From assembly GCA_039091335.1 (NCBI GenBank), contig JAWCME010000001.1:1-64000 (forward strand): DNA of 64,000 bases. The letters are read 5' to 3'. Numbering within the stretch: position 1 is the stretch's first letter; the number at the start of each line of letters is the position of its first letter. Both the position numbers and the translations under genes were made by a program. Shown in pieces: positions 86 to 55,445 of the stretch. Origin of the DNA: Candidatus Aenigmatarchaeota archaeon (GTDB lineage Archaea; Aenigmatarchaeota; Aenigmatarchaeia; CG10238-14; SCSR01). The notes below the pieces were generated by a model, which worked only from the letters and a program-made list of their open reading frames with translations, searched no databases and was not told where the DNA came from.

Positions 86-185
86 CGCCGAGGGTGGGAT
101 TTGAACCCACACTCCCCAAAGGGGAACCAGCTTTCTTTCCAAAAAACTCAAGGCTGGCGCATTCGCCTGATTCTGCCACCTCGGC
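86..185 (-). tRNA. tRNA-Ser(UGA) with 14-nt intron at 37/38 (intron 133..146)
   Basis: Reverse complement gives acceptor GCCGAGG/CCTCGGC+G73, anticodon stem CCAGC/GCTGG, CT-TGA-G[TTTTTTGGAAAGAA]A, long variable arm TTCCCC-TTT-GGGGAG and T-loop TTCAAAT; no encoded CCA. Confidence 0.93.
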
Positions 186-252
186 TTCTCATCATATTTT
201 TTTCAGACCTTGAGCTAACAATTTCAATATATTAGTTTAAAAACAAAAGGTT

Positions 253-53276: not shown

Positions 53277-53501
53277 TTAACTAACTATAGTTAAAATAGA
53301 TAAAAATTAAAATTTAAGTTTTATTTAATTCTTTTTTGAGCTAACTTATACCACTTCGTTTTTCAGACAAGAGAAACTACAGAATAATAACAGGACTCGT
53401 TGGTGATAACAGATCCTTTTAACTTGTTTTTAAAGGATGAAAGTATATATTCTGGATACTGAGTGTACAATAGCAGCTATTACCTACAGGTTCTTTTTCA
53501 C

Positions 53502-53903
53502 CTATTTATATCTTTGTTTTAGAATGAAAATATACTTCATAGGCATAAAGGCCTCTAAGTCGCTTTGATAGGAACATTTTGTGCACTTATATCCAATAAT
53601 TATATCCTTCTTCATCAAATTCTTAACCTTTATCTCTTCTATGGAAGAATCACAAATTGGGCATTTTTCTATTTTTTGTAACTTTATTGTTTTTTTTGTT
53701 TTTGCCTTAACTTCAACTTCCGGTAAAAGTAAAGCGATTCTCTTTACCCTAATTGGAGAAAGTATGTATTCCTTGTTTTCTTTCTTAAGCCTTCTTAAAA
53801 CGAGATTACACAGCTCTTCCTGCGTATCAACTCTTATTCTACTTCTAATAACGTTTTTTATTTCTTCAGCAACCCTACTAGCTGGCGGAATTTTACTTTC
53901 CAT
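53502..53903 (-). CDS. Hypothetical protein with C-terminal Zn ribbon
   Basis: CPIC...YKCTKCSY...PMKYIF. Confidence 0.72.
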   Translation of the reverse strand: MESKIPPASRVAEEIKNVIRSRIRVDTQEELCNLVLRRLKKENKEYILSPIRVKRIALLLPEVEVKAKTKKTIKLQKIEKCPICDSSIEEIKVKNLMKKDIIIGYKCTKCSYQSDLEAFMPMKYIFILKQRYK

Positions 53904-54041
53904 CTCAATAAGAATTTATAAAAGTAGGATTTAAGTTTAACATAACAGTTATATTTTACAATTACATATACTTTAAAAAATGAAGAAAGGATGTTAATAG
54001 AAATTAAATTTTATAACTTTCAAAATAATACTATCTTACAT

Positions 54042-54153
54042 GCCGAGGTGGCAGAATCAGGTAATGCGCAGCCCTGGAGTTTTTAGAAAGGCTGTGTCCC
54101 TCTGGGACGTCTGGGTTCAAATCCCAGCCTATGGTAATACCAGCTGAACGGCG
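54042..54153 (+). tRNA. tRNA-Ser(GGA) with 9-nt intron at 37/38 (54080..54088) and 18-nt BHB intron at 68/69 (54131..54148)
   Basis: GCCGAGG pairs with CCT[ATGGTAATACCAGCTGAA]CGGC+G; anticodon stem CAGCC/GGCTG; CT-GGA-G[TTTTTAGAA]A; variable arm GTCCC-TCT-GGGAC; TTTTATAA box at 54009-54016. Confidence 0.92.
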
Positions 54154-54288
54154 CCTTTGAACCCGGAGTCTCGTGTTTCTTTGATAGATAGGTTTAAATA
54201 GTCATGAAAGAATTTAAAAAATAGGAGGTCTGATAGAAAAATCTATTTCTGAACTTGAATTATTTAATAGGTAAAAGGAGGTTGTAGA

Positions 54289-54555
54289 ATGCCAAGGTTT
54301 GAAAGAAGGGGATTTAAAAAATTTGGAAGAATTGATATACCGAAACCGATAAAAGAGGGGGAAGAATATGATGTTGAAATAAATGAGGTCGGTTCTAGGG
54401 GTGATGGAATAGCAAGAATTAAAAATTTTGTTGTTTTTGTCCCAAATACAAAGAGGGGTGATAAAACACATATAAAAATAAAAGAAGTTAAAAATAGATT
54501 TGCGATAGGTGAAAAGATAGAGCTTAGAGAGGAAACAGTGTCCCCTAAAGAATAG
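54289..54555 (+). CDS. Single TRAM-domain RNA-binding protein
   Basis: PIKEGEEYDVEI..VGSRGDGIARI..FVVFVP. Confidence 0.92.
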   Translation: MPRFERRGFKKFGRIDIPKPIKEGEEYDVEINEVGSRGDGIARIKNFVVFVPNTKRGDKTHIKIKEVKNRFAIGEKIELREETVSPKE

Positions 54556-54620
54556 GGTACTTGAATCCCATTTTTAAATTTTTTAGTTATGTGTTTTAAA
54601 TGAAAAGCTAATAATTAATT

Positions 54621-55445
54621 ATGTTTGTAACAAAGTTTGATGGAAGAAAAGAAATTTTTCAAAAAGAAAAGATTATAAGAACTTGCTTAAGAATGCGTGC
54701 AACAAGAGAGCAAGCCGAGTATGTTGCAGAAAAAATAGAAACTAAAGCTTATGATGGAATTCCAACAAAAAAAATTCTTGAGTTGATTTTTTTCTATCTT
54801 AAAAAATTTAGACCAGAAATATCGTATCATATTGACTTAAGAAAATCAATCTCCCTTCTAAGACCAAAACCAGATTTTGAAATATTTGTTCAACTATTAC
54901 TTAAAGCACTTGGCTATGAAGTAATTCCAAATCAGATTGTAAGAGGGATATGTGTAGAACATGAAATAGACGCAATTGCCAAAATGGGGAAAGAAACTAT
55001 TTTTGTTGAGGTAAAACACCATTTGAATCCGCATACCTATACCGGGGTTGACGTTTGCCTAGAAACTTTTGCTAGAATGGAAGATTTAAGAGAAGGGTAT
55101 TTGAAGGGAATAAACAAAATTAAATTTGATTATGCCCTTATCGTATGTAATACAAAATTTTCTGAATATGCAAAAAATTATTCTTTGTGCAAAAACATAA
55201 AACTTTTAGGCTGGAACTTTCCCGAAGGCCGGGGACTAGAACAAATAATCATTGAAAAAAAACTTTATCCAATAACCTTTTTAAAGGAGTTGGACCCTGA
55301 CACAGAGAAAAAAATTGCTGATAGCGGAATAGTTTTGTTAAAACAAATGGCCGAGATTGGCTTGAATGAACTATACAAAAGAACTGGGGTATCAAAGAGC
55401 AAAATAAATAGATTTAGGGAAAAGGCCATTCAAATATTAGACTAA
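54621..55445 (+). CDS. ATP-cone plus PD-(D/E)xK (Mrr-like) domain protein
   Basis: VTKFDGRKE.F..EKI (ATP cone); HEIDAI...VEVKHH; CNTKFS; LYPIT. Confidence 0.83.
   Translation: MFVTKFDGRKEIFQKEKIIRTCLRMRATREQAEYVAEKIETKAYDGIPTKKILELIFFYLKKFRPEISYHIDLRKSISLLRPKPDFEIFVQLLLKALGYEVIPNQIVRGICVEHEIDAIAKMGKETIFVEVKHHLNPHTYTGVDVCLETFARMEDLREGYLKGINKIKFDYALIVCNTKFSEYAKNYSLCKNIKLLGWNFPEGRGLEQIIIEKKLYPITFLKELDPDTEKKIADSGIVLLKQMAEIGLNELYKRTGVSKSKINRFREKAIQILD

Follow-up and report, generated by a model that had tools for sequence, protein, structure and literature searches.

Non-canonical tRNA introns of archaea, described from the Thermoproteales and other lineages, present a strict bulge-helix-bulge (BHB) motif at their junctions, in full hBHBh′ with an outer helix h, a central helix H and an intron helix h′, within a precursor fold that is unlike the cloverleaf. 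The available portion of PMC4090602 gives their sites up to 59/60 and calls the site at 3/4 "an extreme case", and the acceptor stem is named among the intron regions in the available parts of PMC3978253 and PMC12397907. The gene described here, a tRNA-Ser(GGA) gene at 54042-54153 (+) of a 64,000-nucleotide (nt) window of DNA from a Candidatus Aenigmatarchaeota archaeon, shares with these systems, the 3/4 case included (PMC4090602 and PMC3978253, each as far as available), the strict hBHBh′ at the junctions, the precursor fold unlike the cloverleaf, a canonical intron in the same gene and a presumed processing by EndA and RtcB. It differs in the site of its second intron, which at 68/69 interrupts the acceptor stem on its 3′ side, five bases away from the end of the tRNA, whereas theirs lie no further than 59/60 in those parts of the sources; in its host, a DPANN archaeon of the Aenigmatarchaeota type whose relatives have a single short EndA; and in its BHB being the best predicted fold only with the 3′ trailer of the transcript. 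The original prediction, made from the sequence of the window, had called such a site very unusual, which is consistent with the limit of 59/60 and is tempered by the naming of the acceptor stem as an intron region in the two other partly available sources. The kind of intron is thus known, and the 68/69 site is rare and may be unreported. A literature search with the primary intron catalogues outside its scope found no mention of an intron site within positions 66-72, and no description of a trailer-assisted intron design was found in the literature searched.

The split and permuted tRNA genes of Nanoarchaeum equitans, Caldivirga, Staphylothermus and Thermofilum have in common with this locus a 12-14-base pair (bp) helix of non-tRNA sequence beside the BHB and a BHB processed before the tRNA ends mature (PMC3218864, available part). 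The locus differs from them in being one unpermuted transcript whose extra helix joins the trailer to the T arm of the same tRNA instead of pairing two foreign flanks. Archaeal pre-rRNA leader-trailer processing stems also carry BHB motifs, which are cut by EndA, and resemble the present case in that the flanking transcript builds a helix that presents the BHB to the enzyme. There the flanks pair mutually and the product is released, whereas here the trailer pairs with a mature part of the molecule and the exons are re-joined. PMC7714728, in its available part, mentions that precursors of rRNA contain a BHB.

The stretch 54042-54153 is probably a working tRNA-Ser(GGA) gene with two introns spliced by proteins, of which the one at 68/69 would be presented to EndA by the trailer and removed before the ends are trimmed. 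What is seen directly is the motif with its exact boundaries, its presence again in a second genus, and a specific trailer complement with which the BHB becomes the predicted best fold. The window makes up the opening 64 kb of a contig of 118 kb, which belongs to an assembly (G000, the genome under study) of 569,737 bp in 29 contigs, with a G+C content of ~33% and a completeness of 87%; DNA runs containing the stretch are labelled hot springs metagenome. The gene is laid out as follows.

54042..54079 (+), exon 1, positions 1-37: acceptor 5′ strand GCCGAGG, D arm and anticodon stem, from the ARAGORN cloverleaf after intron removal
54080..54088 (+), intron 1, 9 nt, TTTTTAGAA: canonical site 37/38, relaxed bulge-helix-loop with 3′ bulge AA↓A
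54089..54130 (+), exon 2, positions 38-68: anticodon stem 3′ strand, variable arm, T arm and C66 C67 U68
54131..54148 (+), intron 2, 18 nt: site 68/69 in the acceptor-stem 3′ strand, h′ hairpin 54132-35/54139-42, H strand GCUG 54143-46
54149..54153 (+), exon 3, positions 69-73: CGGC and discriminator G73, with CCA not encoded and CCT coming next

With G1 at 54042, the T stem 3′ strand C61-G65 corresponds to 54123-54127, C66-U68 to 54128-54130, C69-C72 to 54149-54152 and G73 to 54153. The serine features of the gene are a long variable arm (GTCCC-TCT-GGGAC), the anticodon GGA at 54076-54078 in the ARAGORN cloverleaf and G73, which is a serine identity element. The anticodon stem CAGCC is followed by the loop CUGGAG, the 9-nt insert, A and GGCUG, and the T arm reads CTGGG-TTCAAAT-CCCAG.

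The insert at 54131-54148 reads ATGGTAATACCAGCTGAA, with ...CCCAGCCT before it and CGGCG after it. An hBHBh′ of 10 pairs, every one of them Watson-Crick, is formed precisely at the 68/69 boundaries, and every element of the perfect motif proposed in the original prediction is found in its place. Helix h pairs C61C62 (54123-24) with G70G71 (54150-51) over 2 bp, the central 4-bp helix H pairs CAGC (54125-28) with GCUG (54143-46), and the 4-bp helix h′ pairs UGGU (54132-35) with ACCA (54139-42) around the loop AAU. The bulges CU↓A (54129-31) and AA↓C (54147-49) are of 3 nt each on opposite strands, with the predicted cut after the second base. The paralogous tRNA-Ser(UGA) at 86-185(-), which ends ...CCTCGGCG, has the identical acceptor stem GCCGAGG/CCTCGGC-G with no interruption, as had been claimed for it, so that the boundaries of intron 2 are fixed independently of the motif. 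Removal of 54131-54148 restores a 7-bp acceptor stem GCCGAGG/CCUCGGC followed by G73, the same as in the paralog.

With the boundaries fixed, 1,000,000 shuffles of the 18 nt yield 66 instances of a strict BHB (G-U allowed, h′ of at least 3 bp) and 8 of a motif with Watson-Crick pairs throughout and an h′ of 4 bp; the corresponding counts for random 18-mers of the genome composition are 273 and 12 per 1,000,000. The motif at these boundaries thus goes beyond coincidence. A loose BHB scan gives 7 BHB-like sites within 200 nt around the gene, which makes the motif by itself weak evidence. ARAGORN makes no call on the unspliced gene or with the 37/38 insert alone removed, and reports tRNA-Ser(GGA) with a score of 109.7 once the 18 nt alone are removed and 119.3 once both inserts are removed. 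The expectation that tRNA finders would call this gene truncated is roughly right: by default ARAGORN reports none in the window and with the option -i it invents a 1,641-nt intron, and the Rfam tRNA model scores 33.0 bits with the acceptor strand paired with intron bases and a false end at 54136. According to the available part of PMC8450103, tRNAscan-SE 2.0 lengthens its candidates by 60 nt so that introns close to the ends, the 3′ end included, are not missed.

A self-splicing group I or II intron, whose ribozyme core takes hundreds of nucleotides, is ruled out by the 18-nt size and by an Rfam scan of the window at gathering thresholds, which returns two tRNA matches and nothing else; no ribozyme core of either group is found in the insert. 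An origin as a mobile element or with a homing endonuclease was likewise rejected. The 18 nt have no second copy in the genome with up to 2 mismatches allowed, and no homing-endonuclease family is found by Pfam among the seven neighbouring open reading frames (ORFs), six of which match PCNA, a ParA-like ATPase, TRAM, an Mrr-like nuclease with ATP-cone, DUF72 and an Lhr helicase, the seventh being without a match.

The BHB cannot coexist with the T stem and the acceptor stem, and the incompatibility already pointed out for it is reflected in the energies: without the trailer the BHB fold is at -30.3 kcal/mol and the best fold at -37.4 kcal/mol, a difference of ~7 kcal/mol. The predicted partners in the trailer helix are these.

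54110..54121 (+), U48-A59: a single base of the variable region, the 5′ strand of the T stem and the greater part of the T loop, the trailer partner in the precursor fold
54156..54167 (+), anti-T-arm element UUUGAACCCGGA: 3′ trailer, begins 2 nt past G73, 12 contiguous pairs (one G-U) with 54110-54121
54168..54172 (+), GUCUC: lengthens the trailer helix by pairing with GGGAC (variable arm 3′ strand, 54104-54108) across a one-base bulge, in G000 only, as seen in the minimum-energy fold and centroid

Once the trailer is added, the fold of minimum energy for the G000 sequence consists of the T arm/trailer helix, a small internal loop, h, a bulge, H, a bulge and h′, so that the 2-bp helix h is continued past the internal loop by the 12-bp trailer helix. 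This fold (71 nt) has an energy of -27.7 kcal/mol, an identical centroid and a z-score of -3.37, with none of 200 shuffles as good, and in the 134-nt whole precursor the 37/38 and 68/69 motifs are both present in one fold. The genome G013, of the same family and another genus, has a counterpart AUUUGAGCCCAG that starts four bases past G73 and pairs with C49-U60; in both genomes the 3′ trailer contains 12 nt complementary to the 5′ strand of the T arm and to the T loop. The G013 fold with trailer (87 nt) again contains the BHB and trailer helix, at -32.6 kcal/mol and a z-score of -5.35, with 0 of 200 shuffles as good.

The T-arm/trailer duplex is largely specific to the interrupted genes, being at -16.8 kcal/mol in this gene and at -17.8 kcal/mol in that of G013, compared with -3.3 to -10.1 kcal/mol in the other 24 tRNA genes of G000 and, among 13 Ser genes of relatives that have no intron, -1.9 to -9.4 kcal/mol in 12. 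When G000 and G013 are aligned, all 42 cells over the 21 modelled pairs are paired, compared with 20-48% in slid controls; three pairs differ on one side only between the two genomes and are all still paired. Two paired positions distinguish the trailers, with A-U replaced by G-U at one and G-U by A-U at the other, and the flanks of the element are unrelated. Read on the opposite strand, each G-U pair would become a C-A mismatch, which argues that the constraint acts on the sense RNA.

The proposed course of maturation starts with transcription of the gene through the 3′ trailer up to a T-rich run. From sequence and energy it is predicted that the 12-nt trailer element then captures the T stem 5′ strand and T loop (U48-A59), and that the freed T stem 3′ strand and C66 pair with the intron to give the strict BHB, its outer helix prolonged by the trailer helix. 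EndA would cut at 54130/54131, after U68, and at 54148/54149, after the last intron base, and RtcB would ligate U68 to C69. The spliced RNA would then refold, the acceptor stem and T arm being able to form only at this point, and RNase P, tRNase Z and the CCA-adding enzyme would act last. From established archaeal tRNA splicing we infer the cutting by EndA, the joining by RtcB and the order of the steps. Splicing would have to precede end trimming because the trailer is needed for the BHB to be the minimum-energy fold; the same order had been put forward in the original prediction, and gains support from the conserved trailer complement of the T arm.

Several observations weigh against a spliced intron presented by the trailer. 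A search for RNA runs that contain 53500-54700 gives none. The thirteenth intron-free Ser gene, L007 of G035, has a duplex at -16.4 kcal/mol that stems from a convergent tRNA gene ~50 nt downstream, which means that such complements can arise for other reasons. At least 11 contiguous pairs (G-U allowed) occur in 429 of 100,000 shuffled trailers, and the case for the trailer thus rests on specificity, position and conservation jointly. No pair is changed on both sides and only two sequences are available, so the covariation is weak, and the intron with its trailer occurs in only 2 of 70 family genomes. In the spliced G000 RNA with trailer the trailer helix is predicted to be retained, at -46.1 kcal/mol compared with ~-40 kcal/mol for the cloverleaf, so that refolding in G000 would need help; for the spliced G013 RNA with trailer the predicted fold is the cloverleaf. 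Finally, EndA is not found in the 87%-complete G000 assembly by PF01974, and tblastn with the G013 EndA gives nothing better than E 4.8.

The strong complement of L007 is also a reason to consider that the intron is real and spliced by EndA and that the trailer complement is dispensable, either as the leftover of an inverted duplication or antisense tRNA fragment or with another role such as 3′-end formation or precursor stability. The 14 bases GAACCCGGAGTCTC, which are identical in the G000 trailer and in the antisense of a variable-region/T-arm segment of another tRNA on contig C23, point in this direction, as does the local BHB, which is still favourable by itself at -6.2 kcal/mol. A dispensable complement is nevertheless unlikely. 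The element lies 2-4 nt past G73 in both genomes and covers the same T-arm bases between unrelated flanks, its differences preserve pairing through G-U in the sense RNA only, and no tRNA is detected on the opposite strand. The BHB also changes from ~7 kcal/mol off the best fold to the best fold with the trailer, and such a complement is lacking in the other 24 tRNA genes of G000.

Splicing assisted by the trailer is strengthened by the second case. The tRNA-Ser(UGA) gene of G013, with the sequence ...CCCAGCCU, 31 nt, CGGCG, has a 31-nt intron at the identical 68/69 site. Its first seven and last nine bases are identical to those of the G000 intron, H, h and both bulges are identical, and h′ has 10 bp compared with 4 bp in G000. 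The two interrupted genes are not orthologous, as the genes adjoining the intron-bearing tRNA of G013 match G000:C1:236-1733, which places it beside the intron-free Ser(UGA) gene of G000 at 86-185. The own Ser(GGA) gene of G013 (L271) has no intron and a different acceptor stem.

Beyond these two genomes the design is not seen in the sets searched. BLAST of the gene against 40 relatives gives a Ser tRNA match in 31, and the acceptor 3′ strand is uninterrupted in all 13 relatives' Ser genes that were read, G013 aside. The junction pattern CCTATGG..GCTGAACGGC occurs in 3 of 118 genomes of the order, which become 2 as the match in G064 is not a tRNA, and the junction pattern GGTTCRAATCCNNNNNNATGGT occurs in 2 of 371 genomes of the class, G000 and G013. 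A covariance model of the BHB and trailer helix (R1) matches 4 of 70 genomes of the family at E ≤ 1, with G000 (81.9 bits) and G013 (106.7 bits) the sole strong ones and G016 and G088 at ~17 bits over 44-46 nt. The pattern T loop..TTTGARCC matches 7 of the 70, the other five being uninterrupted tRNAs with a distant 8-mer, near chance expectation. In public collections searched with a loose pattern, a tRNA context is found among the at least 239 matches listed only at L063, which is the same gene as that of G013; these matches say little about occurrence more widely. No other acceptor 3′-strand intron is found among the truncated or low-scoring tRNA hits of G000 (four) and G013 (five), which all have D-loop, T-loop or multiple internal introns and intact acceptor stems.

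A 27-nt 3′ end, GUCUGGGUUCAAAUCCCAGCCUCGGCG, recurs within the family in several genes for Ser(GGA) and for Ser(UGA), which makes gene conversion or re-insertion at an identical target possible. The shared intron may go back to either of these or to an ancestral intron with many losses. One neighbouring protein is 66% identical to its G013 counterpart and 65-69% identical to those of four other genera of the family and one genus of a neighbouring family, so it gives no sign of a special closeness between G000 and G013, a single protein being unable to settle kinship. A wider proposal, advanced tentatively and with less confidence than the splicing of the gene itself, is that acceptor-stem introns could persist alongside a short, strict EndA by means of a cis "surrogate strand" in the flank, namely a 3′-trailer copy complementary to the T arm that unfolds the tRNA and builds the BHB, with splicing first and trimming later. 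Intron and trailer would then form a module mobile between tRNA-Ser genes through the shared 27-nt 3′ end, which would account for its presence in Ser(GGA) of one genus and in a non-orthologous Ser(UGA) of another.

The recurrence in G013 bears as well on the possibility of a pseudogene, a tRNA-Ser copy disabled by an 18-nt insertion that stays in place, with the functional Ser(GGA) gene located in the 13% of the genome that is not assembled. The incomplete assembly, the EndA missing from it and the low Rfam score of the unspliced gene would be in keeping with a pseudogene. This is very improbable given a perfect BHB at the exact exon boundaries (8 to 66 per 1,000,000 shuffles), a remainder of the gene that is intact after removal of the inserts (ARAGORN 119.3), the retention of the same design in a second genus and a dedicated trailer complement in both genomes. 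BLAST of the 87%-complete assembly finds no second Ser(GGA) gene, and of the serine codons counted across 250 long ORFs 38.5% are UCU or UCC.

RtcB is represented in G000 by a PF01139 match at C25:37091-37729 (E 4.6e-85) that the contig end cuts short, and is full-length in G013. EndA is found in 25 of the 25 relatives searched. The open frames around the match in family f1 are mostly of 189-210 amino acids, with two of 229 and 236, which is the length of the single-unit type; the EndA of G013 has 191. Single-unit EndAs with an extra loop in DPANN lineages are linked to heavy tRNA gene disruption in the available part of PMC5829648. The genomes G025, G028, G030 and G033 of neighbouring families have instead a frame of ~400 amino acids with two endonuclease domains.

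A chimeric join within the tRNA gene, arising in assembly or binning, would be conceivable in a metagenome bin fragmented into 29 contigs. Two DNA runs from hot springs have contigs that extend across 53900-54300 and show zero differences, and a third run covers the region through two contigs jointly, although these runs may include the source sample; in all, contigs of four runs were compared with the stretch and show neither a variant nor a joint. The gene also lies mid-way in the 118-kb contig, and the independent genome G013 has the same architecture, so that an artefact of this kind is extremely improbable.

The interest of the locus lies first in its position, an intron five bases short of the 3′ end, on the strand to which the amino acid is attached. 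The design is testable, and the predicted refolding of the precursor by the trailer would fix the order of the tRNA maturation steps. If true, it could explain introns in awkward places in lineages with an EndA believed to require strict motifs. A gene that serves 38.5% of the serine codons escapes two common tools, and DPANN tRNA inventories may be undercounted in the same way. The module in non-orthologous Ser genes of two genera is a small and clean case for the study of intron movement.

The flanks of the gene contain two further sequence features that may relate to its transcription.

54010..54016 (+), TATA-like TTTATAA: centre ~29 nt 5′ of G1, a possible archaeal promoter on weak evidence
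54176..54182 (+), TTTCTTT: T-rich, downstream of the trailer element

A/T-rich upstream regions are present in all 25 tRNA genes, which leaves TTTATAA merely suggestive as a promoter. TTTCTTT is a likely archaeal termination signal, and in G013 T6 and longer T runs come immediately past the trailer element. An ORF of 274 amino acids at 54621-55445 (+), ~470 nt 3′ of the tRNA, combines an ATP-cone, an Mrr-type restriction-endonuclease domain and an AF1548-like C-terminal domain; no link between it and the intron was found.

Intron 1, with its boundaries at 54080-54088, gives the loop CUGGAGA, which is that of the intron-free Ser(GGA) of G013 (L271); ARAGORN puts an intron of equal length two bases earlier. 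It folds with positions 32-36 paired with intron bases and a 3-nt bulge. At 9 nt it is very short for an archaeal tRNA intron, those of relatives at 37/38 being of 10-14 nt and the Ser(GGA) gene of G013 having none.

Elsewhere G000 is rich in non-canonical introns, located in D loops, anticodon stems and T loops, many of which are mislabelled by ARAGORN. The low-scoring or truncated Rfam tRNA matches at C12:24669-24790, C16:338-470, C26:13240-13346 and C27:2246-2390 correspond to T-loop, D-loop or multiple internal introns. An apparent insert of ~14 nt follows the 5′ acceptor strand, at about position 7/8, in the tRNA-Ser(UGA) gene L002 (G015:C48), which reads GCCGGGA, insert, TGGCAGAATC. A stretch of the form ..GCTTTGA / GGTTTGA .. 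A-rich .. GATGAAAG.. is common to introns of different tRNA genes, at C18:587-710, C23:24121-24257 and C1:95263-95389 in G000 and at L270, L273 and L280 in G013. The shared stretch suggests an intron family spread across unrelated tRNAs, as in Thermoproteales.

The paralogous tRNA-Ser(UGA) gene has a leader element upstream, at about 186-220 (-) of the window, with the arrangement GCTCAAGGT-CTGA-(8 nt)-TGATGA, which is conserved upstream of the Ser(UGA) genes of L002, L003, L009 and L011. This leader looks like the box D′/C′ pair of a C/D guide RNA, with a guide complementary to the gene's own anticodon loop (CCUUGAG) that by the 5-nt rule, which we assume to hold here, would target U34.

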